Source: Planctomycetota bacterium (GTDB lineage Bacteria; Planctomycetota; Phycisphaerae; WQYP01). Taken from it: a DNA stretch of 64,000 nucleotides. Positions within the stretch are counted from its first letter, which is position 1, and every line of letters starts with the position of its first letter. Under the pieces are notes generated by a model, which had not been told where the DNA came from, searched no databases, and saw only the letters and a program-made list of their open reading frames with translations. The translations under genes and the position numbers were made by a program. The stretch spans positions 1,223 to 65,222 of the forward strand of contig JAJYZF010000016.1 in the NCBI GenBank assembly GCA_021800165.1. Reading direction: 5' to 3'. Of this stretch, positions 1,211 through 43,830 are shown one piece after another.

Positions 1211-4200
1211 CTATTGTTGAACCGCTTGGAGAGCACTGGAACTGGTGATTCCGTATTGGGGATAGCCGGCAGGCCAAATATTGACGAAAACGGATTCGCT
1301 GGCATTGTCGGCATTGTAGCTCAATGACAGTGCCGCGTAGAAATGAGGCAATTTACGCACAATTGTCACGGCGGAAAGGATATTATGTGAAAGTGAAAAG
1401 TCATAGCTTTCGGTGGCGGAAAGAGCATATTTTCGCGTCAGTTTGTAATTAATGGAAAATGTCCATTGATCAGAATCGACCGCCCGAATGTACCGATTAC
1501 CCAAGAAGTAGCTGATCGAAGGCGATTGATCGACCATCACACCCGCGTCGGCGGTTTCAAGCTGCTGCAAATCCACATTGTAACTTTCATCTCCAAGCAG
1601 CCGCACGTTGGCCCCGGCGCGCCACGTGGCGTTGGCGTTGATGCTGTCGGCGACCTGGCTAAGCTCCGGCTGGCTAAAATCGTAATAGCCCACCAACGGC
1701 TGGCCATAATCGCTGGTGGAAAACGGCCCTCCCGCATAAATCGGATTGTTGGAACTAAAGGGACCGATCGCCGACTTGTTCCAAAACATATCCGCGGCAA
1801 TATTGAAAGTCATCCAATCCACAATTTGCTCATGACCGGGCGAACCACGTTTGGTTTGCAACGTCTGCCGCAGCGCAAATTCCGCACCGCTGGCATCGGT
1901 GATGCCTTCGACATTACGGTCGAACGGCTGCAAATATCCCTGCTGTACGTTGGATCCGGAAACAAAAACATCGACCTCGGGCTGAATAATGTGCCGGAGT
2001 TGATGCACATCCAGAAAATTGGAATTAAATCCTTTGTAAACTTTCCAAAATGTGGTGGTGGCCCGCAGACCTACCGCGCCCCACGCCCGAGTGGTGCTGC
2101 CGTTGACTTGATCGCTGGAAAAACTGGAATCCCAATAGGTGAGGCGTCCTGTTACGTAGGGCACCACATGCAACGCCCCAAAGGACAGCGGCAGGTCAAT
2201 TTCCTGTCGACTGTCCAATCGGGCCACATTTTGATCGGTCCAGCCGTTATTGAGATAATACTGCTGGAAAGTTTCGTTCTGATTCATGCTTGGAAAATCG
2301 GTTTGCAATCCACGCTGCGCCGGTGTGGACTGACTGAACTGGTCGTTCACCAGCCCGCCACTGCTCTGGCTGTAATAGGTGAAAATACCCAACAGCGGAT
2401 CACCCTCGCGCCAATACTGCACTTCGGGTGTCTTTTGCACGGTAAATTCGTCGTCTTCAAGATCGGCATTGGTCACAAAGTGGTTTAAATTCCATTTGCC
2501 CAAAATGGTCAGACCTTCGGTATCGTGCTGCTGTTTCAGGTAAACCGATGTTTGGTGCTCTGAATCCGCTTCATACCGACTGTCAAAATACTGTTCCAGA
2601 AAATTCGGGTCCGAAAAATATGCCCCTTCCAGTGAAACGGTCCACTGTTCGGACAGCCGCTGCATGTACTTAGCAAAAATATAGCCGCGTGTGTGCCTCA
2701 GCAGTGGCAGCGACGTACGGTTGTTACCCAAATCGTCGGTACCGTGGTCGTCAATGAGAAAACTCTGAACGCTGCCGTGCCCCCCAAACGCCTGATCATA
2801 CGCATTAATCCCGCCGCCGAAACCGCGGTTGGAATAGTACAAAGCCTGGCCATCGGCATGAAAATTAAAAGGCGGATGATAACCCAGCAGATCAAGCAAA
2901 TCCCAGTTGGTCCGCACCGACGTGCCATAAATACTGGAAAAGCCGACCGTTGCACTGCGCAAAGCCATGGAATGTTGCTTCGTGTCGCCGGCCAAATAGG
3001 GCCAGTAAAAGAGTGGCACGTCATGGACGGCAAAGATAACACTCTTAGCGGTATAGGCATAAACGGGCTTGGGATGTGGACTGGGTGTAACGCTCGCTGG
3101 AGTAATATTTCGCAGGGTCATGGAACTGGCACCGATGTAATAATGCGGATTGTAAAATTCATCGGTGGAGAGCTTGGCGGACTTCGCCTCCAGCCGGCCT
3201 TGCGCGAGTTGGAGAATCTCTTTGGCCCGTATGTACAGCGGCGATTTGGTTTGTACATCCACATCGCTGAGCACCGCATTTAGCAAAATGGCACGGTTGG
3301 TGGTGAGATCATAATACACCCGGCTGGCGTGCATGGTTTCGTAGCCATCGGTAACACTGACATCTCCCTGGAGATACACGCCCTCCACAGACCTGGCAAT
3401 CCGCGACACCTTGCCGCTGGCAGGGCCAGGTTCTTTCTGGCCCAGTGGGCTAAAGAGCACGGCATTGTCCGCCCGCAATTCCAGCGGCGGCTGGCCCGGT
3501 ACCGTTTCCCGAACCAGATAAAAATTGCCTCGGGCCACGGTGATGCGCTGGTTGCCGATGGTGCGCACTTCAATATGGTTACCGGTGGCAAAAATTCTTG
3601 GCGGCGTCGTGGGAGCCTTGGGTCGATGCTTATGAACCAACTGGCGAGGAGTGGGCACGGAATGTACCACCGGCGAGGGAATGCCCTGGATCACACCGCT
3701 GGCACTGCGGGTGATCCAGCCTTCGCGCAGCGCCAATTCGGTTTTCTGAATTTCAATGGTCGGAACGAATGGCACGGGCCGTGGCCGCGAGGCCAGTTGC
3801 AGCCGCAATTTCTTGCCACGCATCACCACGGGATTTTTGGATTGATTTTTTGGCACCGGAGCCGAACCGGCCAGTTCTATTTTGGAAAGCACCCGCGTAG
3901 TAACCAGTAGTTCCCGGGCCTTGCTGACCGCTTGGCCTCTGACACCTTCACTAATGCGCACCTGCCCCTGCAAATAAATAGTAGTCGCAAAAACCCCCGT
4001 ACCGCCACCGCGGATAGGACGCAGGCGAACCGACGCCGCATTGGCCGACAACAGGCGATATCCCACTTCAATACGCACGTGCCCTTGCAGGTAAATATGC
4101 TGGATGTCGGTACCGCTGATCCAGACATCACTATGGTCCGCAGCGACTTGCAGCGGCAAGTCAATGGGCGTGGTTGGGGTGAGTACTGGAAAAACTGTGG

Positions 4201-4279
4201 GTGTGATCAAGGTACTGGTGGGCACGGCATGAACCGGTGGGCCACAAAGCAGGCTGCCGGATACAGCAGCGGCAATCAT
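1211..4279 (-). CDS. Large outer-membrane protein, putative LptD/OstA-family LPS-assembly protein
   Basis: 1099-codon ORF. The probable start is the ATG at 4279 (MIAAAVSGSLLCGPPVHA, signal-peptide-like). The long upstream extension is Arg-rich and untypical. Total size is ~1000 aa, with an N-terminal beta-jellyroll-like region and a long C-terminal region rich in Y/F/N/D/G alternations typical of beta-barrels. It is adjacent to rpoN. Function is inferred, not proven. Confidence 0.45.
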   Translation of the reverse strand: MIAAAVSGSLLCGPPVHAVPTSTLITPTVFPVLTPTTPIDLPLQVAADHSDVWISGTDIQHIYLQGHVRIEVGYRLLSANAASVRLRPIRGGGTGVFATTIYLQGQVRISEGVRGQAVSKARELLVTTRVLSKIELAGSAPVPKNQSKNPVVMRGKKLRLQLASRPRPVPFVPTIEIQKTELALREGWITRSASGVIQGIPSPVVHSVPTPRQLVHKHRPKAPTTPPRIFATGNHIEVRTIGNQRITVARGNFYLVRETVPGQPPLELRADNAVLFSPLGQKEPGPASGKVSRIARSVEGVYLQGDVSVTDGYETMHASRVYYDLTTNRAILLNAVLSDVDVQTKSPLYIRAKEILQLAQGRLEAKSAKLSTDEFYNPHYYIGASSMTLRNITPASVTPSPHPKPVYAYTAKSVIFAVHDVPLFYWPYLAGDTKQHSMALRSATVGFSSIYGTSVRTNWDLLDLLGYHPPFNFHADGQALYYSNRGFGGGINAYDQAFGGHGSVQSFLIDDHGTDDLGNNRTSLPLLRHTRGYIFAKYMQRLSEQWTVSLEGAYFSDPNFLEQYFDSRYEADSEHQTSVYLKQQHDTEGLTILGKWNLNHFVTNADLEDDEFTVQKTPEVQYWREGDPLLGIFTYYSQSSGGLVNDQFSQSTPAQRGLQTDFPSMNQNETFQQYYLNNGWTDQNVARLDSRQEIDLPLSFGALHVVPYVTGRLTYWDSSFSSDQVNGSTTRAWGAVGLRATTTFWKVYKGFNSNFLDVHQLRHIIQPEVDVFVSGSNVQQGYLQPFDRNVEGITDASGAEFALRQTLQTKRGSPGHEQIVDWMTFNIAADMFWNKSAIGPFSSNNPIYAGGPFSTSDYGQPLVGYYDFSQPELSQVADSINANATWRAGANVRLLGDESYNVDLQQLETADAGVMVDQSPSISYFLGNRYIRAVDSDQWTFSINYKLTRKYALSATESYDFSLSHNILSAVTIVRKLPHFYAALSLSYNADNASESVFVNIWPAGYPQYGITSSSALQAVQQ

Positions 4280-4464
4280 CGCCCGCACGGCCAACGCGGC
4301 CCTGCCCCAGCGGCGCACCACTCCCGGTGGTGCCCCGGACGGATGGAGATTTTTCTGATACACGGACACGCTCACGCGGAAACTTCTCCGAAAACAAGCC
4401 GGATGATAGCCGCTGCGGACCCGGATGCAAAGTGACCGGCCAACGTCGATTGGGCTGGAGCCTG

Positions 4465-4493
4465 AAAAAAAAAGCCGCGGCGTATGCCGCGGC
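4465..4493 (-). terminator. Rho-independent terminator downstream of galM
   Basis: A perfect palindrome GCCGCGGC-GTAT-GCCGCGGC (4474..4493) is preceded on the plus strand by A9 (4465..4473). On the minus strand this is an 8-bp GC stem followed by U9, lying 30 bp after the galM stop. Confidence 0.7.
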
Positions 4494-4523
4494 TCGCAAG
4501 ACTCTGCCATCCGCAGGCGACTT

Positions 4524-6301: not shown

Positions 6302-7126
6302 ATGCGTGTAGTAAATCGGGCGGCATTGTATGCGCCATGGGCTGGCTTATGGAAGCATCGCGGCTTGGTTTGGCAGATGACCAAGCGCGATGTACTGGGG
6401 CGGTATCGCGGGTCTTTTATTGGTTTGGCCTGGTCTTTTTTTAACCCTCTGTTTTTACTGGCGATATATACCTTTGTTTTCTCAGTGATCTTCAAGGTGC
6501 AGTGGCGACCAACCGGTTCCAAAAGCACGGGCGCTTTCGCCTTGGCGCTGTTTAGTGGTTTAATCGTTTTTATGCTTTTTTCAGAATGTTTAAACAAAGC
6601 CCCAGGCATCATCTTGGCCAACCCCAATTTAGTCAAAAAAGTGGTCTTCCCTTTGGAGATACTTCCATGGGTAACTCTTGGGTCGGCATTTTTTCACTTC
6701 CTGGTAAGCTTTGGCGTGCTCTTGGTGGCGTGCCTTTTAATCACCCATACGCTGCAATGGACGGTGATATTTGTGCCGCTCGTACTGTTGCCGCTGCTGC
6801 TTATTTGTGCAGGTCTGATGTGGTTTCTTTCTTCGCTCGGGGTGTATCTGCGCGATGTGGGCCAGGCCATGGTAATGATTACCATGGCGCTGAATTTCTT
6901 GTGTCCTATCTTTTATCCCGTGACGGCGGTGCCGGCCCGCTACCGGATACTTCTATATTTCAATCCGATTACACCGCTGGTGGTGCAGATGCGCCATGTC
7001 GTTATCTGGGGCCAATTGCCGGACTGGACAGAGTTGGCTGCGACTGCGCTGGTCGGGTTGATTTTCAGTTTCCTGGGCTTTATGTGGTTCCAAAGAACCA
7101 AGAAGGGATTCGCGGATGTCGTCTGA
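6302..7126 (+). CDS. wzm: ABC-2 type polysaccharide export permease (Wzm/KpsM/TagG family)
   Basis: About 6 predicted TM helices and the ABC-2 family N-terminal motif KRDVLGRYRGSFIGLAWSFFNPL. It overlaps the downstream ATPase gene by 11 nt, suggesting translational coupling. Confidence 0.8.
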   Translation: MRVVNRAALYAPWAGLWKHRGLVWQMTKRDVLGRYRGSFIGLAWSFFNPLFLLAIYTFVFSVIFKVQWRPTGSKSTGAFALALFSGLIVFMLFSECLNKAPGIILANPNLVKKVVFPLEILPWVTLGSAFFHFLVSFGVLLVACLLITHTLQWTVIFVPLVLLPLLLICAGLMWFLSSLGVYLRDVGQAMVMITMALNFLCPIFYPVTAVPARYRILLYFNPITPLVVQMRHVVIWGQLPDWTELAATALVGLIFSFLGFMWFQRTKKGFADVV

Positions 7127-8528
7127 ACCGGCCATCGCAATTCGTGGCGTGGGCAAGCACTATGAGATTTATGACAAGCCGCAGCACCGGCTTTGGCAGA
7201 GCGTTTTTCGCGGAAAACGGCAATTCTACCGCGAATTCTGGGCACTAAGGGGTGTCAATTTTGACATCCAACGCGGTGAGACCTTCGGGATTGTGGGGCG
7301 GAACGGCTCCGGCAAATCAACCCTGTTGCAGATTGTCGCCGGCACCCTTCAGCCCACTACCGGCGAGGTGCGCGTCCACGGCCGCGTAGCCGCTCTCTTG
7401 GAACTTGGCAGTGGCTTTAATCCGGAATTCACCGGGCGTGAAAACGTATTCTTGAACGCTGCCATGCTGGGGCTCTCCCGTGGCGAAATCGAAGCACGCT
7501 ATGACGATATCGTGGCGTTTTCCGAGATTGGCGATTTCATGGACCAGCCGGTAAAGACGTATTCCAGTGGTATGTACGTGCGACTGGCATTTTCAGTATC
7601 GATTAATGTAGATCCTGATATATTAATTGTTGATGAAGCCCTCTCCGTGGGCGATGAAGCCTTTCAACGCAAGTGCTATGCTCGGATTCGGACGATTCGT
7701 GATAGCGGCGCCACCATTCTTTTTGTGTCCCACGCCTGCGCTATTGTGCTGGAGTTGTGCGACCGTGCGGTGCTGCTTGATCACGGCGAACAGTTACTTC
7801 TAGGGGCACCGAAACCGGTCATATCTTATTACCAGAAACTCATGTTCGCCCCGCCGGAGGTGGCGGCCCGATTGCGAGAAGATTTCAGGGCAATGGATAC
7901 CCAGACGCTCGCCTCCCAAACCGCTGTGGATGCATCAGGCTCCAACAGCACACCCGAGTTCCAAGCCGGTGTAGCCGCCACCGCCTCGTCTTTAGTACCC
8001 GTCACCCCGGCCGATCCAACACCTTCACCGTCTGAACGCTTCGATCCAAACCTGGTCCCGAAAAGCACGATCGTGTATCCCTCCCGCGGCAGCCGGATTG
8101 AGAACCCGCGCATTACACGCCTGGACGGATCACCGGTGAACATTTTGCGCCGACGGCGGGAATATGAGTACCGATACGACGTGCACTTCGACCAGACAGC
8201 GCAGAGAGTCCGCTTCTGCATGCTCATCAAAAGTGTAACAGGATTGGAATTGGGTGGTTTCGCGACACCTCTTGGCCAAGAGGTGCCCATCATCCGGGCC
8301 GGATCCGTGCTGGAGGTGGCGATGAGATTCCGCTGCACGCTCGCACCCGGCGTGTATTTCAACAATGCCGGTATTCTTGGCGAAGATGCCACCGGTGTCG
8401 AACAATATCTGGCCCGCATGATCGACGCCGTGATGTTCCGAGTTGAACCGGAAGCCAGATCCTCCCTCACAGCCACCATGGATTTTCTCATTGAAGCCCG
8501 TTACACTGCTGTTCAAGAGGCATTATAG
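7116..8528 (+). CDS. wzt: ABC transporter ATP-binding protein (Wzt/TagH family) with a ~220-aa C-terminal extension, putative glycan-terminus-binding domain
   Basis: Walker A GRNGSGKST, signature YSSGM, Walker B ILIVDEALSVGD and H-loop FVSHA. A further ~220 aa lie beyond the nucleotide-binding domain, as in O-antigen Wzt proteins whose C-terminal domain recognises a chain-terminating modification. Confidence 0.85.
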   Translation: MSSEPAIAIRGVGKHYEIYDKPQHRLWQSVFRGKRQFYREFWALRGVNFDIQRGETFGIVGRNGSGKSTLLQIVAGTLQPTTGEVRVHGRVAALLELGSGFNPEFTGRENVFLNAAMLGLSRGEIEARYDDIVAFSEIGDFMDQPVKTYSSGMYVRLAFSVSINVDPDILIVDEALSVGDEAFQRKCYARIRTIRDSGATILFVSHACAIVLELCDRAVLLDHGEQLLLGAPKPVISYYQKLMFAPPEVAARLREDFRAMDTQTLASQTAVDASGSNSTPEFQAGVAATASSLVPVTPADPTPSPSERFDPNLVPKSTIVYPSRGSRIENPRITRLDGSPVNILRRRREYEYRYDVHFDQTAQRVRFCMLIKSVTGLELGGFATPLGQEVPIIRAGSVLEVAMRFRCTLAPGVYFNNAGILGEDATGVEQYLARMIDAVMFRVEPEARSSLTATMDFLIEARYTAVQEAL

Positions 8529-8600: not shown

Positions 8601-11600
8601 ATGAACAATGATATCAATCAACACCCAAAAAACGCGACCTCGCCTCTTACCTCCGCCACCAAGACTGCCATCTTTGTCGTTGGCTTCCATCGCAGCGGCA
8701 CCTCCGCTTTCGCTCGCTTCTGCAACTTGCTGGGAGCCCAGATGCCCACAGGCGCTGGATTGATCGCTCCGGATAACCCGACGGGATTCTGGGAGCCAGA
8801 ATCCATTGTTGCCATACATGATCAGTTTCTGGCGTCCAGTGGGTTGTCGTGGGATACGGTCGACGAGATGCCACAATCTGCATTTGACGGCCCAAATGGT
8901 ACCGCAGCACGCGGGAAGTTGCGGTACTGGCTCGCCCGCGAACTCGCCGGCACGGATTTACTGGTGCTTAAGGATCCACGGCTGTGCATGTTGTTGCCGT
9001 TGTGGGTACCGGTGGTTAAAGACCTGAACATTCGTCCCGTTTATTTGATCCCCTTCCGGAATCCGCTTGAGACCGCACAATCTCTTAAGCAGCGCAACAG
9101 CCTGCCAATTTCGCTGGGATTGGCGCTTTGGTCACAATATATTGTCGCCACGGAGCGTCATACGCGCCAAGCTCCGCGGGTATTCGTGTCATACGATGCC
9201 CTGCTGCAGGATTGGTCCCGATGCGCCGCAATGATTAGTAGACGACTAGATCTGCGCTGGCCCGTCGATTTCATGGTAGCCCAACCGCGGATCGACGAAT
9301 TCCTGTCGGCACGGTTGCGTCACCATGAGGCTACATGGGCCAGCCTGATGCAAATACCGGAATCCAACTTGTGGATACAAGGGTTGTACCGCACACTGAA
9401 ACGGCTGGAAAATGATCCTTCGCTCGACGTCGCTGGAGAAATCGGCGAAGCTGCACAGAATCTCAAGACCTTATGGCTTGTCACGCGGCAGGCTCAGGCC
9501 TACGCCTCGGGGTTGAAGGATCAAATCCAGGCCGCAAACCTCGCGGCGGAGCAACTCCAACGCGACCATACCGCCGAATCAACAAAGCTCAAGGACCAAA
9601 TCCAGGCCGCAAACCTCGCGGCGGAGCAACTCCAGCGCGACCATACCACCGAATCAGCAAAGCTCAAGGACCAAATCCAGGCCGCAAAATTGGATTTGCA
9701 GCGAACCGGGATCGAACGTGACCATCTGGCCAGCATTGAGACCCAGTTGCGGCGACAAATTTACGACTTCGAGCACTCCAGGTCGTGGCGGTATACGCGC
9801 CCTTTACGTCAGTTTCGCGGAGCCGTTCGTCTGAAGTTCTCATGGATTTTGTCTCTCTCCAGACGATCAGCATCGGTTATTCGCCATCAAGGGCTGATGG
9901 CTTTCTTCACGCGAGCCAGAGGCTATCTTCACAACCGCTGGCGGTATCAATGGAAGAGATTCCCGAGGGCCTTTTCCGATCAAAGCATGCACGTACAAAA
10001 AAAGGAATCGGATCCGGTCATCATCGCCAGCGTAATAATTCCCGTGTATGACAGAACAGATATCTTGCGTCAAGCCATTACCTCAGCGCTCAACCAGACC
10101 GTCGGAAATATCGAGGTGATCTTGGTGACGGATGGTTCACCACCTGAGACTGTGGCCGTCGTAAACGAGTTCCGCAGAGATCCTCGCGTGAGAGTGTTTA
10201 ATTATCCTGAAAAGTCCGGCACCGCAGTTCGGGGCCGCAACAAGGGCATACTTGAAGCGAGAGGAAAATACATAGCCTTTCTTGACAGTGACGACATCGC
10301 CGATCCGCAGCGCCTTGAGAAAAGTCTTCCCGTGCTTGAAACGGGCGCGGCGGATGTTGTCTACGGAGCATGGAAAGCGATGCTCGATGGATCGCGAAAA
10401 ATGGAGGATCTGTTACATGACCAGGTGGTTGTCAGTCCCAATTGCGATTTAAAAATGTTGCTGCAGGTGTGCGTTCCATGCCAAAGCACTGTGACGGTCC
10501 GCAAAAGCCTCTTTGATAAAGTGGGATTGCTCAAAAGGCACATGCGCTATAGGGAAGATCACGAGCTATGGGTCCGCTTGGCCCATTATGGAGCTCGCTT
10601 CCAATCAATACCCGAGGTGTTAGTCCAACTCCGGTTGCATAAAGGCAATAACGAGCTGAATTTCAAGGCTGATGATCATCAATGGGCGGAAGCCTTGCAG
10701 GCCGAATACAAATTGCCCGGCCCCAAGCCCAAGAAAATAGTCTTTATTCTGCCCGGCGTCGGTATCTCCGGAGGTGTAGCCGTGGTCTTCAAGCACGCCC
10801 TGGCGCTGATGGAAGCAGGCCATGATGTTACGATAGTCAATATTGGCGTAGAACAAAAATGTGATTGGTTCCCGGACAATTCCATTCCTATCGTCCATGG
10901 TTCGGATGAACGGGATTACCTTTTTGATAACATAGATCTACTTTTTGCGACAGGATGGTCAACCGTAGAATGGTTGGAGCGATATCGAGCAAAGCGAAAA
11001 CTATACTTCGTTCAATCTGATGAACGCCGTTTCGTTGACGAATACGGCCTGAAGCAGAAAATTCATAATGAATACAAAACGCCCTGTGAATATGTCACAA
11101 TAGCGCGGTGGCTCAAAGCCATGTTGAAAGACGAGTTTGGCCATGAGGCCGCCTATGTTCCCAATGGGATCGATCTTAAGGCCCTTTATCCAGGCAGTCC
11201 CTTAAGCCCAAAATGCGGCCCGCGTCTTCGTGTCCTCATCGAAGGACCTATCACGATTCCTTTTAAGGGCATGGCTGACGCACACGCGGCAATCGCCACG
11301 CTCGACTGCGACATTTGGATTGTCAGCAGTAGCGGACGACCGCCCCCTCATTGGAGATATAACCGATTCTTTGAAGCTGTTCCTTTTACCGGAATGAGGG
11401 AAATATATGCATCCTGCGATATATTTCTCAAAATGAGCCGGATTGAAGGGTTCGGATTACCGCCGCTGGAGGCAATGGCCTGCGGGTGCGCCGTAGTTAT
11501 CGGACGGGTTGAGGGTTGTGATGAATATGCGAAAAATGGCTATAATGCGATCGTTGTCGATCAGGGGAACATCGAAGCGGCAAAGTGTGCGGTTCAACAT

Positions 11601-11774
11601 CTGATAAATGACCAAGCGCTACGGCAGAAGCTTGTCACCAACGGATTTCAAACTGCGCGCCAATGGACATGGGAAAACGCAACCAAAGCGATGCTGGCGG
11701 TGGTGGTAGGACCAGACGCGGACAATGATGATTCTTCGGGCAAACGAGTGGACAAGGTAGGCTCGAAAATGTGA
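8601..11774 (+). CDS. Multidomain glycan synthase: N-terminal sulfotransferase domain, coiled-coil with tandem repeats, GT2 domain, C-terminal GT4 (GT-B) domain
   Basis: N-terminal domain: FVVGFHRSGTSAFARF (5'-PSB-like P-loop) and LVLKDPRLCMLLPLW (3'-PB-like). Coiled-coil region: KDQIQAANLAAEQLQRDHTxESxKL repeated about 2.3 times. GT2 domain: SVIIPVYDR...VILVTDGS...YIAFLDSDD. GT4 domain: KIVFILPGVGISGGVAVV...EGFGLPPLEAMACGCAVV. The first ATG is at 8601. ORF 8529..11774 begins at a TTG at 8529, immediately after the wzt stop, which is an alternative start. Confidence 0.8.
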   Translation: MNNDINQHPKNATSPLTSATKTAIFVVGFHRSGTSAFARFCNLLGAQMPTGAGLIAPDNPTGFWEPESIVAIHDQFLASSGLSWDTVDEMPQSAFDGPNGTAARGKLRYWLARELAGTDLLVLKDPRLCMLLPLWVPVVKDLNIRPVYLIPFRNPLETAQSLKQRNSLPISLGLALWSQYIVATERHTRQAPRVFVSYDALLQDWSRCAAMISRRLDLRWPVDFMVAQPRIDEFLSARLRHHEATWASLMQIPESNLWIQGLYRTLKRLENDPSLDVAGEIGEAAQNLKTLWLVTRQAQAYASGLKDQIQAANLAAEQLQRDHTAESTKLKDQIQAANLAAEQLQRDHTTESAKLKDQIQAAKLDLQRTGIERDHLASIETQLRRQIYDFEHSRSWRYTRPLRQFRGAVRLKFSWILSLSRRSASVIRHQGLMAFFTRARGYLHNRWRYQWKRFPRAFSDQSMHVQKKESDPVIIASVIIPVYDRTDILRQAITSALNQTVGNIEVILVTDGSPPETVAVVNEFRRDPRVRVFNYPEKSGTAVRGRNKGILEARGKYIAFLDSDDIADPQRLEKSLPVLETGAADVVYGAWKAMLDGSRKMEDLLHDQVVVSPNCDLKMLLQVCVPCQSTVTVRKSLFDKVGLLKRHMRYREDHELWVRLAHYGARFQSIPEVLVQLRLHKGNNELNFKADDHQWAEALQAEYKLPGPKPKKIVFILPGVGISGGVAVVFKHALALMEAGHDVTIVNIGVEQKCDWFPDNSIPIVHGSDERDYLFDNIDLLFATGWSTVEWLERYRAKRKLYFVQSDERRFVDEYGLKQKIHNEYKTPCEYVTIARWLKAMLKDEFGHEAAYVPNGIDLKALYPGSPLSPKCGPRLRVLIEGPITIPFKGMADAHAAIATLDCDIWIVSSSGRPPPHWRYNRFFEAVPFTGMREIYASCDIFLKMSRIEGFGLPPLEAMACGCAVVIGRVEGCDEYAKNGYNAIVVDQGNIEAAKCAVQHLINDQALRQKLVTNGFQTARQWTWENATKAMLAVVVGPDADNDDSSGKRVDKVGSKM
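9516..9690 (+). repeat. 78-bp (26-codon) in-frame tandem repeat, ~2.3 copies, inside the coiled-coil segment of the synthase gene
   Basis: AAGGA(T/C)CAAATCCAGGCCGCAAACCTCGCGGCGGAGCAACTCCA(A/G)CGCGACCATACC(G/A)CCGAATCA(A/G)CAAAGCTC occurs at 9516 and 9594, with a partial third copy from 9672. Confidence 0.9.
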
Positions 11775-12092: not shown

Positions 12093-13958
12093 TCAGGAAA
12101 TGGTGCTCCTGAAAGTGGACGAAGGTACACCGCTTTGCGGGTTGATCACCGTAAACGTAACGTTGTTTCCCGAAGCGATGATCCAACCATTGGTGCCGTA
12201 GGCACCCGTTAAGCCGCTGATGACGATCTGGGTGTTCGTCCATGAGGTCACATTGGTGGTAACGCCATCACCAGTGTTGCCCCCCGCCCAAGGGCCTGCG
12301 GTATCCACCAGCTTAAGGTCGGCGCTGTCGCCATTGTATGGCGATTGCACCCCAAAGCCACTGCCATCAATTGTAATCTGCCAGTTGTTGCTGGTGCCCG
12401 CGAGAAGTTGCGACGAAACCGACGAGATCACCGGATTTGGGGTTGTGGGCATGGCATAGCTAAACGTGGTTGCGGCAATACCGGACTGCGGATTGGAAAC
12501 ATTGATGGCTAGCGCATCACCCGGACTGATCACCCAGCCGTTGGTGCCATACGCACCCGTCAAGCCGCTGATGACAATTTGGCTGTCCGTCCACGAGGTG
12601 ACATTAGCCGTCACACCGTTGCCCGTATTACCCCCCGCCCAGGGGCCTGTGGTATCCACCAGCTTAAGATCGGTGCTGTCGCCATTGTATGGTGATTGAG
12701 CGCCAAAGCCGCTGCCATTAATTGTGATATCCCAGTTGTTGCTGCTGCCCGCAAGAAGTTGCGTAGCAACCGAGGCAATCACGGGCGTCAACGCCGGAAC
12801 AGTATAGGAAGCTGGATTGGACACAAGACCATCTTGGACGTTATTAACAGTGAAACTCAATTGGTTCCCCGTATTAATCACCCAGCCGTTGGTGCCATAC
12901 GCTCCCGTCAAGCCGCTGACGACAATTTGGCTATCCGTCCACGAGGTGACATTAGCCGTCACACCGTTGCCCGTATTGCCGCCAGCCCACGGGCCGGTGG
13001 TATCCACCAGCTTAAAATCGGCGCTGTCGCCGTTGTAGGCCCCTTGAGTGCCGAATCCGGTGCCATTGATCGTGATCTGCCAATTATTGGGATTGCTCGC
13101 AATGGCCTGGATGGAAATGGAAGTGATATCAGGCGTCGCAATGGCGTACGAAAACTGGGGAGCGGCAAGGCCGTCTTGGGGATTATTCACCGTAAAAATC
13201 AGGGTGTCGCCGGGATTGACCACCCAACCGTTGGTGCCGTAGGCCCCACTCAGCGAACCGATAACAATTTGGTCGTTGGTCCAGGAGGTAACATCAGCCG
13301 TCACACCGTTGCCCGTCTTGCCGCCAGCCCACGGCCCAGCGGTATCAACAAATTTCAGGTCCGCATTATCGCCAGTATATGCCGCTTGTAAGCCAAGACC
13401 ATGGCCGTTTATTGTGATCGCCCAGTTGTTTATGCTCGTCAACCGCTGTACAGACACTGCGTCAATCTGCGGAGTTCCCGGAACTGTCTGGTAGGTAACG
13501 GCGGCGACATTCGTTTGTGGATTCGTTACGCTGATCACCAGGGAATCCGCCGGACTGATTAGCGCACCGTTCACCCCATACGACCCGCTCAAACCGTCAA
13601 TGATAATTTGGTTGTTTGTCCAAGAGGTTACGTTCACGCCAACCCCGTCGCCTGCTTGGCCGGCCGCAAAAACCCCGGCATCTACCACTACCAGATCGCC
13701 GCTTCCACTTCCGCTATACGCCGCACTGGTGCCGAGATTACTTCCGTTGATGGTAATGGAATAATTGTTGGTGCTCCCCAACTCCGTCGCAATCACCGAC
13801 GTTATCACGGGTGTCGCACTAAGCATCACGCGAGGCTCCAAGGCCTCAAACAAGCGCCGAGGCCGATGGGAATGTTTGCGACTTTGTGACTCATTGACCA
13901 TTCTCTTGGAATTGGATACCTGACGGCCATGACGCATGACTCGAGATAACAGACTCAT
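12093..13958 (-). CDS. LEPR-XLL domain protein with six tandem ~95-aa beta-rich repeat domains (secreted, function unknown)
   Basis: The N-terminus reads HRPRRLFEALEPRVMLSA (LEPR-XLL motif). Six repeats follow, each with consensus NNWxITINGSGFGxQxxYNGDSADLKLVDTxGPWAGGNTGNGVTANVTSWTxxQIVISGLTGAYGTNGWVIxxGxxLxFTVxNPQxG. Confidence 0.8.
   Translation of the reverse strand: MSLLSRVMRHGRQVSNSKRMVNESQSRKHSHRPRRLFEALEPRVMLSATPVITSVIATELGSTNNYSITINGSNLGTSAAYSGSGSGDLVVVDAGVFAAGQAGDGVGVNVTSWTNNQIIIDGLSGSYGVNGALISPADSLVISVTNPQTNVAAVTYQTVPGTPQIDAVSVQRLTSINNWAITINGHGLGLQAAYTGDNADLKFVDTAGPWAGGKTGNGVTADVTSWTNDQIVIGSLSGAYGTNGWVVNPGDTLIFTVNNPQDGLAAPQFSYAIATPDITSISIQAIASNPNNWQITINGTGFGTQGAYNGDSADFKLVDTTGPWAGGNTGNGVTANVTSWTDSQIVVSGLTGAYGTNGWVINTGNQLSFTVNNVQDGLVSNPASYTVPALTPVIASVATQLLAGSSNNWDITINGSGFGAQSPYNGDSTDLKLVDTTGPWAGGNTGNGVTANVTSWTDSQIVISGLTGAYGTNGWVISPGDALAINVSNPQSGIAATTFSYAMPTTPNPVISSVSSQLLAGTSNNWQITIDGSGFGVQSPYNGDSADLKLVDTAGPWAGGNTGDGVTTNVTSWTNTQIVISGLTGAYGTNGWIIASGNNVTFTVINPQSGVPSSTFRSTIS
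12150..13815 (-). repeat. Coding tandem repeat array, period ~285 bp, six copies
   Basis: DNA-level periodicity is visible as near-identical antisense shadow ORFs at 12220, 12466, 12817 and 13276. It is a coding tandem repeat, not a CRISPR array: there are no short fixed repeats with spacers. Confidence 0.85.
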
Positions 13959-14541: not shown

Positions 14542-16375
14542 CCTGACTTCCCCCGATGAAGAGCGAAAGTCCTTGGTTTGCGGCCTTTCCGCGGTAATGC
14601 ACTTGCTACAATCAACCCGGTGCCCACGCTGGCGGCTGGGTAAACAGTGGCAGCAGCTCCAGTTGGCCGAGGATGGCGTTAAGGTCTTTGGGCACGCGGG
14701 TAACCTTGGTTTTGAGCCTTTTACCGTTCACCTCCAGACGTCCCAGCCGGATGGTCTGTAATTGCCGGAGCAAATGATGTACTTCAATAGTCTGGCCTTT
14801 GCGCCGCCATTGGGCCTCAAGTTTGGCGCTGAGCCAATAGGCCAGGAAGCAGATTCGCACATGATTGCGCACGCGATCAGGGCGGTAATGAAATACCGGG
14901 CGTACACGCAGATAATCTTTCAGATGGCAGAAGGCATCTTCAACTTCCAACAAGTTCTTATAATGCACGACCACTCCCGCGTTGGAGATCCGTTGGGCCG
15001 AGGCATTGGTTCGCAGGAGATACAGGCCGTCGCGTTGGGCTTCGGCCCGGATCAAATCTTGGCGATGACTCCATTGTAACTGCCCTTTCTCATCCACTGC
15101 GTAATGGAAATATTTGTGGGCCTTAAGCCGTTGCAGCATCCGTCCCACCTGGCGGGCCAGCTTTTGCGCGTTGACCTTCTTACGCGGCACCGCCGCCATT
15201 CGCTGGAGTTCGTTTTCCGCCTTGGTGATGCGGGCCTGGCGTCGCTGCCGGTCCCGCTCTTGCCGCCACGGTCCCCCGGCAATCACATACCGTTGACCCT
15301 CTTTAACTATTTCCATCAGCCCTGTGCGATCCCACAGTTCAGGCGACTGATCGCTGGGTAATTCCGCCAACAGTTCAGCCAAAACCCCTGCCCCGCAGCG
15401 GGTCACATACATCAGGCCCAGCGCCTCGATCGCCTCCAAATTCACCTTACTACTCATGCCGCCATCGAAGACGAACACCGCCTCCTGAATCCCCAAACGC
15501 CGACGCAACGTATGGAGCAACCCCTGCAAGGTCGTGGTATCGCCCCGGTTGCCCCGCAAGACCTCCAAGTGCAACGGCAGACCTTTGGTATCGGTGGCTA
15601 CGGCCAAGAGCACCTGGGGACGATCGCCGCGATGGTCCCGACTGTAGCCGTAGCGACTGATCCCCGCCGGTCCCTGGCCTTCAAAGTACACACTGGTCAA
15701 GTCATAGAGCACCAGCGAGACGCCTGAATTCAAGCCTTGGGCATAGAGTTGCTTTTCCATGGCCACCCAACGCCCGTTGAATTCATCCATCGCCGCATAC
15801 AGGTCGTCTTCATCGAAGGTCTCCCGATCCTGCCAGAGCCCGCAGGCGGCGGCCAACAGCGTGCCCCGGGCGTGATCCCGCAAGGCCAGCTTGGCGCTGG
15901 GGAACAAGATACGCCCAAAGATCATGGCCTTGATGAGGCCGGCGTGCCGTGGCACCGCAACTGCCGCCAGAACTTTATCCAACCCGAAGTCATCCCAGGC
16001 CCGGCGTAACACGGCCAGGCCGCCAAAGCTCTGGGCTTCCGACAACTCCAGGCTCTCCAAGTCCACCAAGTTCTGGCCCCGCAAAGATTGGGCGATGAGT
16101 TGGCGGGTCTGGGGCGGCAAGGCGGTGATATTGCAAAGGGTGCGTGAGCGTGGCCCCTTGGGGGTGCGGAAGGATTCACGCACCAGGTAGGTGAGGTAGG
16201 TTTTCTTGCCGCGTTTACAGGTGGTCGTCTGCACAAACATACAAGCTACATGTTACTAGGATATAAACCATAATACAAGCATCATATACAATAATATAGC
16301 CGAAGATTACTTGCTACATTTTTGCCCAAAACAGCGTTTTTACGGCCTTTTTTAAAAAGCCGGGGGGAAGTCAGG
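14542..16375 (-). mobile_element. IS4-superfamily (IS1634-like) insertion sequence, 1834 bp, terminal inverted repeats CCTGACTTCCCCC(C)G, 4-bp target duplication CTAA
   Basis: IRL lies at 14542..14555 and IRR at 16361..16375 (reverse complement CCTGACTTCCCCCCG). CTAA occurs at 14538..14541 and again at 16376..16379. The element carries a single 542-aa DDE transposase ORF. Confidence 0.8.
14612..16240 (-). CDS. DDE transposase, IS4 superfamily (IS1634-like)
   Basis: 542 aa, with the motifs YDLTSVYFEG...SRDHRGDRPQV, FVFDGGMSS and HYKNLLEVEDAFCHLK (a Y..E..K-type C-terminal signature). The size is typical of IS1634-group transposases. Confidence 0.75.
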   Translation of the reverse strand: MFVQTTTCKRGKKTYLTYLVRESFRTPKGPRSRTLCNITALPPQTRQLIAQSLRGQNLVDLESLELSEAQSFGGLAVLRRAWDDFGLDKVLAAVAVPRHAGLIKAMIFGRILFPSAKLALRDHARGTLLAAACGLWQDRETFDEDDLYAAMDEFNGRWVAMEKQLYAQGLNSGVSLVLYDLTSVYFEGQGPAGISRYGYSRDHRGDRPQVLLAVATDTKGLPLHLEVLRGNRGDTTTLQGLLHTLRRRLGIQEAVFVFDGGMSSKVNLEAIEALGLMYVTRCGAGVLAELLAELPSDQSPELWDRTGLMEIVKEGQRYVIAGGPWRQERDRQRRQARITKAENELQRMAAVPRKKVNAQKLARQVGRMLQRLKAHKYFHYAVDEKGQLQWSHRQDLIRAEAQRDGLYLLRTNASAQRISNAGVVVHYKNLLEVEDAFCHLKDYLRVRPVFHYRPDRVRNHVRICFLAYWLSAKLEAQWRRKGQTIEVHHLLRQLQTIRLGRLEVNGKRLKTKVTRVPKDLNAILGQLELLPLFTQPPAWAPG

Positions 16376-23838: not shown

Positions 23839-23913
23839 GGTGGATTTAGCTCAGCTGGCTAGAGCACGAGGTTGTGGTCCTCGGGGTCGCGGGTTCGAAT
23901 CCCGTAATCCACC
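23839..23913 (+). tRNA. tRNA-His (anticodon GTG) with genomically encoded G-1
   Basis: Cloverleaf: G-1, acceptor GTGGATT/AATCCAC, D-arm GCTC-AGCTGGCTA-GAGC, anticodon stem CGAGG/CCTCG with loop TTGTGGT, T-arm GCGGG-TTCGAAT-CCCGT, discriminator C. CCA is not encoded. Confidence 0.75.
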
Positions 23914-24124
23914 CTTCTTTGCTCACCGCGCCGGGCACCTGAAAGCGGACTCTTGCAGCCCGTGCCACAAAGCGGTAAACTGGCTCATCTTTCCCGGTGG
24001 TACCGGGATCGCCGTCCGGGTGCTGCCAGGCCGGGGAGCCTGCAAGAATGCAGGCGGTGGGTGCAAGTGCCGCACTTGGCTGATGGTTCCGGACCGGCTA
24101 AGATAACCGGGCACCGGCGGTAAC

Positions 24125-24197
<73 letters not shown>

Positions 24198-24351
24198 TGA
24201 TGGGCTGGCCGGTGTGATCGCGAAAGCACCGCCGCTCTAGACCAACCGCGGTGAAAAGCGGTGCCTGAAACGTGTTGTAGGCGGGTGTAATCCGTTGTTG
24301 GTGATCACGCCCTTTTTAGATTTTGTTTTTTACCTGTAGGAGTTTATTTCC

Positions 24352-25563
24352 ATGGCTAAAGGCGTATTTGAACGTAAGAAACCTCATGTGAACGTCGGTA
24401 CAATCGGACATATCGATCACGGCAAGACCACGCTCACCGCGGCTCTGACCACCGTGCTGGCCCAAAAAGGTCTGGCTACGGCAGTGGCCTATGACACCGT
24501 CGCCAAGGCGTCGGAGAAGCAGGGTAGGCGTGATCCAAGCAAAATCGTCACGATTGCCGTCTCCCACGTGGAATACGAATCAGACAAACGGCACTATGCC
24601 CACATTGACTGTCCGGGACACGCCGATTTCGTCAAAAATATGATCACCGGCGCTGCCCAGATGGATGGTGCCATTCTCGTGGTTTCCGCGGCCGACGGTC
24701 CCATGCCCCAAACCCGCGAACACGTATTATTGGCCCGCCAGGTGAACGTGCCGCGGATCGTGGTATTCCTTAACAAAGTCGATCTGGTCGATGATCCGGA
24801 ACTGCTGGAATTGGTGGAACTGGAAATCCGTGAATTGCTTAACAAATACAAATTTCCCGGTGACGAAATTCCGATCATCCGTGGGGCTGCGGTCAATGCC
24901 CTCAAGAACCCCACGGATGCTAAAGCTATCGAGCCGATCTTGAAGCTCGTGGAAGCTCTGGACAGCTACATACCCGAACCGGTGCGCGAAACCGACAAAC
25001 CATTCCTCATGCCGGTTGAAGACGTGTTTTCCATCAAGGGCCGGGGCACGGTCGGCACGGGCCGTGTGGAACGTGGTACGGTCAAAGTTGGTGACGAACT
25101 GGAAATTGTCGGTCTGAAAAAGGACTCCCAAAAAACGGTGGTTACCGGCGTGGAAATGTTCCAGAAAACGTTGGATTCCGCCATTCCCGGCGACAACGTG
25201 GGCCTTCTGCTCCGTGGTGTGGAAAAGGAACAACTGGAACGCGGCCAGGTGCTCGCGAAGCCCGGCTCCATCACGCCACATACCAAGTTTGAAGCTGAAA
25301 TTTATGTTCTTACCAAAGAAGAAGGTGGTCGACATACCGCATTTTTCAAGGGCTATCGTCCGCAATTTTATTTCCGGACTACCGACGTTACCGGATCGCT
25401 GGATCTGCCGGCTGGAACGGAGATGGTTATGCCCGGCGACAACGTGAAAATTACCGTCGACCTTGGCGAATGTCCCATCGCCATGGAACAGGGCGTGCGC
25501 TTTGCCATCCGTGAAGGTGGTCGCACGGTTGGCGCCGGCGTGGTGACCAAAATTATTGCCTGA
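24352..25563 (+). CDS. tuf: Elongation factor Tu
   Basis: [21 protein letters not shown] and NKVD motifs. 403 aa, with an AGGAG RBS. Confidence 0.97.
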
Positions 25564-25600
25564 CCCGGAACAGTGAACTTTGTACGACGGAGTATAAAAA

Positions 25601-25759
25601 ATGGCGCGCGAATGGGTTTGGCTGCAATGCACGCAAACACAGGATTTGAATTATCGCCTGAGTATCAATCCCAAGGAGATGGACACCAAGAAATTGTTCC
25701 ATAAATTCTCCCCGCGTTTGCGCAAGCACACGGAGCATAAGATAAAGAAGGGCAAGTAA
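25601..25759 (+). CDS. rpmG: 50S ribosomal protein L33 (Cys-less, zinc-independent form), 52 aa; absent from the ORF track
   Basis: MAREWVWLQCTQTQDLNYRLSINPKEMDTKKLFHKFSPRLRKHTEHKIKKGK fits the L33 pattern (..NY.t.kN.....kLel.K..P..rkHt.HkE.K). A GGAG RBS lies 10 nt upstream. The position between tuf and tRNA-Trp/secE is canonical. Confidence 0.75.
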   Translation: MAREWVWLQCTQTQDLNYRLSINPKEMDTKKLFHKFSPRLRKHTEHKIKKGK

Positions 25760-25858
25760 TCGATCAGGCCGTCGGCTTTGGAGTGCCCGCTGATTTGGCA
25801 AGATGCTGCGTAAATGCTATTGCGGATCCGAAGCCTTGGGCTGCGATGAGCGGATGAT

Positions 25859-25931
25859 ACGACAGTAGCTCAATTGGCAGAGCACCGGTCTCCAAAACCG
25901 GGGGTTGCAGGTTCGACTCCTGCCTGTCGTG
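25859..25931 (+). tRNA. tRNA-Trp (anticodon CCA)
   Basis: Acceptor ACGACAG/CTGTCGT, D-arm TAGCTCAATTGGCAGAGC, anticodon stem CCGGT/ACCGG with loop CTCCAAA, T-arm GCAGG-TTCGACT-CCTGC. Confidence 0.85.
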
Positions 25932-26052
25932 GTGGTCAGACAGGTGCGTAAAGTCAGCCGAAAACCGGGGCTGCATACAGGAAATATCGCACGACTGCGC
26001 CGCAGACCCCCGCGATCTTCGGCCAGACGAGAAACAAAAAAGAGGACTACCG

Positions 26053-38557: not shown

Positions 38558-40216
38558 TCAATTCCCATTCTCCCGCCCCCCTGCGGCCCGAGCGTGCTCT
38601 TTCGCCCAAGTCTCCAACTCTGCCGGCTTGGCGGCATAAGCGCCGGTGGTCAACACCATCACCGTCGCGGGATCACCGGCAAATGCATCCCACCAATAAC
38701 GCGAGCCTTGCCCCCACAGTGGCCTCAACACTCCCCCACGAAACATCTTCGCCCGCGGCGTCACCCGTTTCAAAACCTGGCAGCGTGGCGGCCGCTGAAA
38801 CGTAAAATGAGGCCTATCGTCGTTGCCATGCGGCAACCCCCAATTCAACGCCACCCCGGTGATCCATGCCGAATAATCTCTGGATACCTCCGGCATGATC
38901 CGTATCCCCCTCCGCCGCCATTGCTCCAACAGCGTCAGGTATCCTTCCGGCGTAAAGCTCGGATACGCCATCCCACCGGTATCCCAGAATGCCATACTCA
39001 CACCATTCTCCGCCAGATTATCTCGCATCTTAAGCAGGTAGGATTGAGCCAAGGTGGCTTGAGACGCCATCGGCACCACCAGCGCCGGCAAGAACCTCTG
39101 ATCCAGCTTCCAAGCCGCGGCGCTTTGGTCAACACGCGGCGAAAAACGCGGATCAATCAGCACGCCCAAGGGGATGCCAACTCTACTGGCTGCCTTTAAT
39201 TGTTTGAACCAGGCGAGCCTTTCCGGAAACGGTTCATAAAAGCCCTTTCCATCAGGCGGCGCCCATTGAATATATCCCCGTGCCCCCAGCGATTTGGCCT
39301 GGGCCACCTGCTTCACCAGATCCGGAAACGGCCAGCCGGTGCAGGCCCATGGGCTTTCGGTTTTCAGCGCGGATGATTCCACCATGCCGTATCGCTTCAT
39401 AGTGGGCGCTAGCCGCAGCTCGCGATATTCGTCTAGCGCAATATCCGGCATTCCCCGTGCATACGATCGCACATAAAAATCCAGCGTGGTCTGGCGTCCC
39501 TTGCTTAAATTCAGATAGCTATGCACCCGCGGCCGACACACGTTTCCATCTATATGCCAGGAACAACCCGACTGCCGCAGTCGGTCATCAAAAAAATCAA
39601 CACTCACACCCGCCCCGCTCCGCGCATCATAAAACACCACCAGAGCCGAATAGCGGTAATAATCTTCCCCGTCATCGCCGTGGCCTGCCCGCCACGCATA
39701 CCCCCTCCCACCGCAACAGGAATCGAGCACTCGGGTATCCGCCGGTGCCCGTGCGGTGAATTCCGGCAAATCAAAAGAGATCGTGCGAATATTAAACCGA
39801 AAGCCGTTGCCCACACGCAACCGCACATGCACGGGCTGATCACCCCGGCCAGCCTGGTGAATCTCTACCCAGACGCGCACACTGCCGTGGCCGCCAATCC
39901 ATAGTTGCTCCAGCACAGAGTGTTTTTCACCGCTGGATTGGCACATAAAATCCGATACCCCAAACAGATCGCGGACCAGATGGCCCGCCTGGTTTAGATG
40001 GTCGGCCATCGCGTTGTGCGCCTGCAAAGCGGCGACGGTAAAGCCGCGTTGCCGGTCCGCCGCCGATACCAGCCGGAAACCTGTTCCAGACGCCTCCGCT
40101 CGTGCCGGGCCATACCCGCCGACCGCCGCGATACCGGCAAAGCCAGTGGCCACCAGAAATTTCCGCCGCGCTATCCGCCGCCCTTCTGCGTCTCTGAGGT
40201 TATGGTTATTTGTCAT
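38558..40216 (-). CDS. Tat-exported protein, uncharacterised paralog family member 1 (putative GH-A-like TIM-barrel glycoside hydrolase)
   Basis: Tat motif RRKFLVATGFAGIAAVGG. Family blocks: CCGGRGYAW, YYRYSALVVFYD, GYIQWAPPDGKGFYEPFPERLAWF, GIPLGVLIDPRFSPRVDQSAAAWKLDQRFLP, YLLKMRDNLAENGVSMAFWDTGG, GIRIMPEVSRD and PRCQVLKRVTPRAKMFRGG. Confidence 0.85.
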   Translation of the reverse strand: MTNNHNLRDAEGRRIARRKFLVATGFAGIAAVGGYGPARAEASGTGFRLVSAADRQRGFTVAALQAHNAMADHLNQAGHLVRDLFGVSDFMCQSSGEKHSVLEQLWIGGHGSVRVWVEIHQAGRGDQPVHVRLRVGNGFRFNIRTISFDLPEFTARAPADTRVLDSCCGGRGYAWRAGHGDDGEDYYRYSALVVFYDARSGAGVSVDFFDDRLRQSGCSWHIDGNVCRPRVHSYLNLSKGRQTTLDFYVRSYARGMPDIALDEYRELRLAPTMKRYGMVESSALKTESPWACTGWPFPDLVKQVAQAKSLGARGYIQWAPPDGKGFYEPFPERLAWFKQLKAASRVGIPLGVLIDPRFSPRVDQSAAAWKLDQRFLPALVVPMASQATLAQSYLLKMRDNLAENGVSMAFWDTGGMAYPSFTPEGYLTLLEQWRRRGIRIMPEVSRDYSAWITGVALNWGLPHGNDDRPHFTFQRPPRCQVLKRVTPRAKMFRGGVLRPLWGQGSRYWWDAFAGDPATVMVLTTGAYAAKPAELETWAKEHARAAGGRENGN

Positions 40217-40294
40217 CCTGTTGATCCCGCAAAAAGACTCTCTTCCGGGATCAGCAGCCGTCCAGCCCGCCAACCAGAACGCCCACTGCCCGCC

Positions 40295-42016: not shown

Positions 42017-42062
42017 ATTTCAGCACATTCCAGCAACCATCGTCGCCCACCCGCCGCACCGC

Positions 42063-43724: not shown

Positions 43725-43830
43725 CGCGTCCTCCGATACGTACGACCGTCGGCGCGTTACTGCCATTATCAACTCCTGCAATTAAAATCACCCACCCCTC
43801 CGCAGCGCGTCGGTGGTGGATTAACACAAA

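Follow-up and report, generated by a model that had tools for sequence, protein, structure and literature searches.

Whether natural changes in the number of repeat units within a helical molecular ruler could alter the length of an exported glycan is a question raised by a short tandem array in a 64,000-nucleotide stretch of Planctomycetota bacterium DNA (GenBank assembly GCA_021800165.1, contig JAJYZF010000016.1, positions 1,223 to 65,222; here called the window, to which all coordinates refer). The array lies in a forward-strand gene at 8601..11774 that encodes a 1057-residue multidomain protein; its translation, Pfam matches, and AlphaFold2 (AF2) modeling point to a sulfotransferase-like domain, a helical stalk, and two glycosyltransferase (GT) modules of the GT2 and GT4 types, the whole constituting a putative chain terminator, ruler, and polymerase in one polypeptide. 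A first-pass annotation had suggested that the array could be a contingency site that tunes polysaccharide length between strains. The explanation that we consider best, and probable, is that a young duplication of a 25-residue segment in a ruler-type stalk undergoes deletion of single units that would shorten the stalk and, in consequence, the glycan.

Tandem Repeats Finder identified a single array at 9516..9688 (period, 75 bp; 2.3 copies; 95% matches; 0 indels; score, 318), the sole tandem array with a score of at least 80 in the 64-kb window. Comparison unit by unit placed the first copy at 9516-9590, the second at 9591-9665, and a partial third at 9666-9688, all on the forward strand and in frame with the open reading frame (ORF) that begins with ATG at 8601, of which the array covers residues 305/306 to 363; the product reads LKDQIQAANLAAEQLQRDHT(A/T)ES(T/A)K twice, followed by KDQIQAAK. 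The presence of an in-frame repeat of about 2.3 units within the stalk, as reported in the first-pass annotation, was borne out by this analysis, but the period of 78 bp, or 26 residues, given there was rejected in favor of 75 bp and 25 residues, the latter being the number of letters in that annotation's own consensus string. Nor are the copies perfect at the DNA level, as had been stated: of the 75 positions, 4 distinguish unit 1 from unit 2, two of them through synonymous changes (GAT/GAC and CAA/CAG) and two through replacements (A/T and T/A). Two exact stretches are shared by the units, a 38-bp core at 9522..9559 that recurs at 9597-9634 and a 31-bp junction repeat at 9583..9613 that recurs at 9658-9688, both on the forward strand, and because of them the deletion of one unit by slippage or recombination would be expected.

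Copy number does differ between closely related genomes, the comparison that the first-pass annotation had recommended. The 90%-identity cluster of the window protein, which is identical to database protein P0121, contains one 1057-residue form (the window, JGI 3300039716), three 1032-residue forms, and one fragment; the DNA flanks of its members are 99.97 to 100% identical to the window over approximately 22 kb, with 0 to 6 single-nucleotide polymorphisms (SNPs), and in one contig, L002, the repeat is the sole difference from the window in 21.7 kb. The long allele, that of the window and JGI 3300039716, has 2.31 copies and the short forms have 1.31, each lacking exactly one unit, and the short forms fall into two types. 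In type A (GCA_027339985.1, ERZ27237044, ERZ27237460, and ERZ27237183), the 5' part of unit 1 continues directly into the 3' part of unit 2, and the 38-bp core would be the zone of crossover or slippage; in type B (ERZ27237177), unit 1 is intact, as seen in L002, and unit 2 has been lost, probably through the 31-bp junction repeat. The two different junctions indicate two independent deletions, and the simplest history compatible with the sequences begins with a two-unit ancestor whose units had already diverged. No allele with at least three units was found, and only two length states were present among the database proteins and contigs compared; an exact-pattern scan of metagenome contigs for the left array junction gave no match. 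The elongation factor EF-Tu encoded in the window is 94 to 100% identical to proteins labeled as belonging to Phycisphaerae or Phycisphaerales metagenome-assembled genomes (MAGs), and for this reason we place the host in a Phycisphaerae (Planctomycetota) metagenome population.

All of these sequences come from metagenomes assembled from short reads; MEGAHIT produced the five one-unit contigs for which the assembler is known, and the two-unit contig is a JGI assembly. On that basis, the 1.3-copy contigs might have been collapsed from a 2.3-copy genome or the 2.3-copy contig might have been falsely duplicated. We judge either event to be highly improbable, on the evidence of junction k-mers and of simulation. 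Collapse would require k-mers (T at 6 with G at 45, 39 bp apart) that are absent from the 2.3-copy sequence, false duplication from both short alleles would require a k-mer combining C6 with the core that neither of them contains, and between samples the one-unit form shows two distinct junctions. Logan contigs from the SRA runs SRR13203224 and SRR22746138 match the window identically to the last base, and both end at 9551, within the 38-bp core; in a de Bruijn simulation at k=31, the left unitig ended at 9551 only if an allele with at least two units was present, ran through for either short allele alone, and ended at 9559 for a mix of the two. The Logan breaks show the presence of an allele with at least two units in two runs and nothing more, but, together with the simulation, they mean that both length classes are backed by independent pipelines.

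The consequences for the protein were examined in an AF2 model of residues 1 to 470, built with 55 homologs (mean predicted local distance difference test [pLDDT] score, 83.6). A continuous alpha-helix, the stalk or putative ruler, is predicted at 9432..9773 on the forward strand (residues 278 to 391; 114 residues, approximately 170 Å); it is uninterrupted, with pLDDT scores of >90 over residues 300 to 370, and the repeat occupies its middle. For the 1032-residue allele, the predicted helix runs from residue 278 to residue 366, a length of 89 residues, so that removal of one unit would shorten the stalk by approximately 37 Å, or 22%; the helix register would be preserved, since the deletion leaves a native unit-to-unit junction. 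A unit of 25 residues is not a multiple of 7 and yet amounts to 7 turns at 3.57 residues per turn, and at a periodicity of 25/7 each unit presents one stripe, L-I-A-A-L-H-E. The hydrophobic periodicity of the stalk peaks at 3.54 residues, which is in the coiled-coil range (z=2.0, P~0.05 versus shuffles). The earlier claim that the units form the coiled coil is accordingly sustained in part: they lie inside a long, confidently predicted helix, but they make up just 58 of its 114 residues, and the z value of about 2 is modest. As an architecture, a helical ruler-type stalk is well supported by the modeling; its coiled-coil character is only moderately supported, and its assembly into an oligomer is putative. 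A family profile covering the stalk (positions 300 to 433 of alignment A1) weakly matched the phage P22 tail needle protein gp26, a trimeric coiled coil, among PDB sequences (E=9e-6); this match is probably compositional, though it would fit the presence of coiled-coil stalks in the family.

The module at the amino-terminal end of the stalk (8601..9431, forward strand; residues 1 to 277) is sulfotransferase-like, according to Foldseek, invariant motifs, and a weak Pfam match, and is the candidate chain terminator. The 13 best PDB matches to the model of this domain were all 3'-phosphoadenosine-5'-phosphosulfate (PAPS) sulfotransferases (E values of 4e-5 to 7e-4, probability 1.00 in Foldseek), among them the tyrosylprotein sulfotransferases TPST1/2 and the sulfotransferase domains of CurM and OLS. 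The residues HRSGTS (positions 30 to 35), R153, and S161 are invariant in 55 homologs; HRSGTS resembles the 5'-phosphosulfate-binding loop (the P-loop-like xRSGT[ST]) of PAPS sulfotransferases, and R153 and S161, within RNPLETAQS, resemble the 3'-phosphate-binding motif (R...S, in the strand-helix after beta-3), an equivalence drawn by eye. Pfam family Sulfotransfer_3 (PF13469) matched over the HRSGTS stretch with E=0.0017 and 19.1 bits against a cutoff of 27; the same family is precomputed on many homologs, PF00685 is also on some, and one homolog was named a sulfotransferase by its source. When alignment A1 was used as a profile to search PDB sequences, the matches were mostly to the GT2 domain, and none was informative on the amino-terminal domain. 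By analogy with known terminators, we suggest that the latter domain may cap the chain as it grows, the cap probably being a sulfate donated by PAPS.

At the opposite end of the stalk lie the two modules that would form the polymerase. The GT2 module (10029..10523, forward strand; residues 477 to 641) matched Glycos_transf_2 in Pfam (E=3e-32), and its PDB matches include chondroitin synthase and PglI; the GT4 module, a GT-B or group 1 enzyme (10728..11720, forward strand; approximately residues 710 to 1040), matched Glycos_transf_1 (E=5e-20) and Glyco_trans_1_4, and its AF2 model shows Rossmann-type alternation. A conserved motif, SWRxTxPLR (9783..9809, forward strand; residues 395 to 403), forms the base of the stalk in the consensus of homolog alignments and directly follows the stalk in 50 of 118 homologs, irrespective of the GT modules that come next; it is succeeded by a basic, aromatic segment that AF2 models with low confidence. 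We infer that this motif and segment constitute the membrane-proximal end, with a possible role in membrane association or docking. Directly upstream and on the same strand are wzm (6302..7126), encoding an ABC-2 type transporter permease (Pfam ABC2_membrane, E=4e-25) that is called as 274 residues in contigs L004 and L050, and wzt (7116..8528), encoding a transporter ATPase (ABC_tran, E=2e-22) with a carboxy-terminal Wzt_C domain (residues 321 to 449; E=4e-21) that exceeds the Pfam gathering score; the wzt product matches TagH and Wzt/RfbE-type exporters in NCBIfam. In characterized systems, the carbohydrate-binding domain at the carboxy terminus of Wzt recognizes the capped terminus of the glycan. 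The view that the repeat belongs to a long helical spacer in a glycan assembly protein of the terminator-stalk-polymerase type adjoining Wzm/Wzt is therefore upheld by Pfam, AF2, and Foldseek.

It could be argued that the amino-terminal domain is not a terminator at all, being instead a sulfotransferase that decorates sites along the chain or a P-loop kinase-like protein, and that the helix is a dimerization or tethering element rather than a ruler. The Pfam match is below the gathering threshold, the lower-ranked Foldseek matches include P-loop kinases (PFKFB3 and adenylate kinase, for example), and the literature that could be searched, which covered few subscription papers, gave no instance of a sulfate-capped glycan or O-polysaccharide or of a sulfotransferase terminator; in addition, sulfotransferase genes of unknown role are present in other O-antigen clusters (PMC4483657). 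We nevertheless hold this alternative to be unlikely, as the top structural matches are uniformly sulfotransferases and the domain occupies the end of the stalk that is distal from the GT modules, which is where the terminator is found, at the far end of the coiled coil, in all characterized systems (PMC11231755). The Wzt protein with its carbohydrate-binding module is, moreover, typical of cap-dependent export, and one homolog, P0003, joins an orthologous GT2-GT4 unit through a similar stalk to a methyltransferase, a known class of terminator. P0003 and P0005 are GT2-GT4 orthologs (52 to 56% identity) fused by way of a helical stalk to other amino-terminal domains, that of P0005 being assigned to no family, and the comparison suggests that terminator modules may have been swapped on one polymerase.

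We therefore return to the proposal of a ruler that loses units. The array would be a young tandem duplication of a 25-residue segment, or seven helical turns, in an alpha-helical stalk that holds the sulfotransferase-like module apart from the membrane-proximal GT2 and GT4 modules; the adjacent Wzm/Wzt transporter would export the product, with the carbohydrate-binding domain of Wzt reading the capped end. Slipped-strand mispairing or unequal recombination would delete one unit, an event that appears to have happened two or more times in a Phycisphaerae population that is nearly clonal in other respects, and, if WbdD and WbbB are a guide, the resulting change from a predicted helix of 114 residues to one of 89 would reduce the modal length of the glycan. 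That stalk length sets glycan length is thus an argument from analogy, of which the experimental part comes from WbdD of Escherichia coli O9a and Klebsiella pneumoniae O3 and O5, where insertions into the coiled coil raise and truncations lower the modal O-antigen length (PMC5082667), so that the length of the coil sets that of the chain (PMC5082667, PMC3482155). WbdD and the protein described here are alike in that a coiled coil would keep the terminator off the membrane-bound polymerase, but in the WbdD system a separate protein, WbdA, serves as the polymerase, a kinase plus methyltransferase acts as the terminator, and the length changes were engineered rather than natural.

The closest likeness in overall layout is to WbbB of K. 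pneumoniae O12 and Raoultella terrigena, which has a distal terminator, an extended coiled coil, two carboxy-terminal GTs, and a Wzm/Wzt exporter (PMC11231755); its terminator, however, is a glycosyltransferase for beta-linked 3-deoxy-D-manno-oct-2-ulosonic acid (Kdo) and not a sulfotransferase-like fold, and no report of a tandem DNA repeat or natural length variation in WbbB was found in the searchable literature. ORF6 of K. pneumoniae O7 likewise combines an amino-terminal non-GT terminator, a central coiled coil, and carboxy-terminal GTs (PMC11231755), and its methyltransferase(-kinase) terminator recalls the methyltransferase of P0003; it differs in having a methyl-phosphate cap and two GT2 modules, in contrast to the presumed sulfate cap and the GT2 and GT4 modules of the planctomycete protein. 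A phmmer search for homology to WbdD and WbbB against all PDB chains (E<=1) gave just generic GT2 and GT4 matches among the best 60 of 82, and we regard the resemblance to these proteins as one of architecture and not of orthology, with no apparent sequence homology to the terminator domains of WbbB and O7 ORF6. For natural length variation in a helical ruler, the nearest parallel is YscP, the ruler for needle length in the injectisome of Yersinia, in which in-frame repeats of tens of residues vary: PMC3469391, citing Wagner et al. (2009), describes repeats of 14, 25, and 46 residues that differ between Yersinia strains and a linear relationship between the size of the protein and needle length. 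YscP is unrelated, is secreted, and measures a protein needle and not a glycan, so that it serves as a conceptual analog only. In the streptococcal M protein, a coiled-coil surface protein, recombination between tandem repeats inside the gene gives rise to in-frame variants of different length in a single clone; there, variation alters the exposed antigen itself rather than the spacing of two enzyme modules.

The wider family provided a second instance of unit-sized length change. The amino-terminal domain is widespread in environmental bacteria, with 12,897 representatives of 50%-identity clusters at E<=1e-10, and among the 124 proteins collected by a first homology search and cluster look-up, 118 carry it. 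Among homologs with this domain, 330 to 716 residues separate the P-loop from the post-stalk motif, and clear tandem repeats are present in the stalks of approximately 28 of the 118, with periods that are overwhelmingly 7, 14, 21, 28, 35, or 56 residues or else 11 or 22. These periods suggest selection for a continuous coiled-coil register through changes in length. In a distant ortholog, two proteins, P0006 (990 residues) and P0293 (1018 residues), are free of mismatches save for one 28-residue stalk unit; the DNA of P0293 contains an 84-bp repeat (2.2 copies; 98% identity) that is itself nested within a 42-bp periodicity (L058, positions 3149-3336, JGI 3300045439), and P0293 has two of the 84-bp units where P0006 has one. 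This was the one further stalk indel detected when 20 additional clusters at >=90% identity were checked, most length differences in them being due to alternative start codons, and the two clusters with a stalk indel are also those with the youngest repeats as judged by DNA (95 to 98% identity). The GT2-GT4 module has orthologs at 50 to 60% identity in many phyla; an initial protein scan of genome contigs found no relative, and an alignment-based scan found 43 loci with the module, none of the same species, among which an ORF survey showed repeats in L016 (14 residues, three copies) and L010 (28 residues, 1.9 copies) and little else. The most extreme stalk repeat expansion seen in the family is that of P0102, from an ENA assembly, in which a 14-residue unit (RDARIETLASELAE) occurs 15 times, with 99% identity, over residues 348 to 563.

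Do these alleles amount to a contingency locus, that is, an evolved hypermutable site with frequent, reversible switching of stalk length and heterogeneity of glycan length within the population? The gene bears on a surface glycan, nothing but the repeat distinguishes haplotypes that are otherwise identical over 22 kb, contraction has occurred twice independently, public data contain both length classes, and the 84-bp pair offers a parallel in another lineage. All the same, a 75-bp unit in two full copies is unlike the short tracts of many copies that make up classical contingency loci, and alleles of three or more units were not encountered. One-unit alleles keep only a 17-bp exact repeat, for which reason re-expansion should be rare, by an expected factor of orders of magnitude relative to contraction, and the change is effectively one-way. 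In the strict sense, then, the contingency site proposed in the first-pass annotation gives way to a two-copy minisatellite with two length states; the contingency interpretation is not established, and we consider it very unlikely.

A more serious competitor is a neutral minisatellite, in which a duplication that arose by chance, in a helical spacer able to tolerate it, is lost by ordinary replication slippage and the glycan is unaffected, its length being set in some other way, such as by the stoichiometry of terminator and polymerase, or the stalk mediating oligomerization only. In E. coli, tandem repeats of approximately 100 bp are deleted by RecA-independent slippage, and two deletions alongside 0 to 6 SNPs in 22 kb are about what such rates could produce in the absence of selection. 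Chain length in E. coli O9a also depends on the WbdD:WbdA ratio, as cited (ref. 27) in PMC11231755. Against neutrality, the terminator-like and polymerase modules lie at opposite ends of the helix, a layout in which length matters (PMC5082667, PMC11231755), and the stalk repeats of the family strongly favor periods of 7n or 11 residues. We regard neutrality as possible but doubtful.

Several observations weigh against a repeat-bearing ruler that sets the length of a sulfate-capped glycan, in addition to the subthreshold Pfam score of the amino-terminal domain and the want of a precedent for the cap in the literature. A unit-sized stalk indel was present in just 2 of 21 clusters with at least two full-length members, and the heptad or amphipathic periodicity of the stalk is weak, not reaching significance in the part that follows the repeat; both points also favor neutrality. 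Half of each unit is polar (RDHTAESTK), and the AF2 models are monomers. Neither a PAPS-synthesis gene nor an initiating glycosyltransferase was seen among the window ORFs scanned. The alleles fall into just two length states, and all of the data are metagenome assemblies, several of which may sample one population.

Other features of the window can be noted briefly. A gene for mannose-1-phosphate guanylyltransferase lies farther downstream of the glycan assembly gene. Also downstream, a reverse-strand ORF at 12093-13958 encodes 621 residues, with an internal repeat at 12177-13346 of approximately 351 bp (117 residues) and approximately 76% identity that surfaced as offset BLAST self-hits; its product matches no Pfam family besides a subthreshold TEP1_CUB2, and its start is variously called, giving 621 or 577 residues. 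A DDE_Tnp_1 transposase of 542 residues (14612-16240, reverse strand) lies about 3 kb from the glycan assembly gene in every near-identical contig. At 1211-4510 on the reverse strand, a 1099-residue ORF (1050 to 1054 residues in assemblies) with no Pfam match is flanked by a sigma-54 gene, just outside the window, and an aldose epimerase gene. Three consecutive paralogous ORFs of 571 to 573 residues (38558-43781, reverse strand) share 45 to 49% mutual identity and have no Pfam match; two of the three begin with a segment that, by eye, resembles a signal peptide (MSRR(E/D)FL...). Genes for tRNA-His, tRNA-Thr, EF-Tu (tuf), and tRNA-Trp stand in a row at 23840-25932.

In summary, the searchable literature yielded no case of natural repeat variation in a glycan ruler, and relative to it both the repeat-mediated length alleles of a glycan-ruler stalk and the sulfotransferase-like module in the terminator position appear to be new. 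So far, the proof of coiled-coil rulers for O antigens has come exclusively from a few enterobacterial enzymes into which insertions and deletions were engineered; a pair of natural alleles that are one 25-residue helical unit apart, together with the 28-residue pair, offers a direct natural test of the stalk-length ruler. The fusion of a sulfotransferase-like domain to the stalk may represent a new class of chain terminator and, if this is confirmed, would add sulfate to the chain-ending caps methyl, phosphomethyl, and Kdo. More tentatively, and with limited expectation that it will hold, we raise the idea that stalk-length minisatellites are a general device in this family of approximately 12,900 clusters, with the gain and loss, by tandem duplication and deletion, of helix-compatible units of 7n, 11, or 25 residues tuning the length of sulfate-capped surface glycans; if so, natural allele pairs would provide ready-made tests of the ruler model outside the Enterobacteriaceae.

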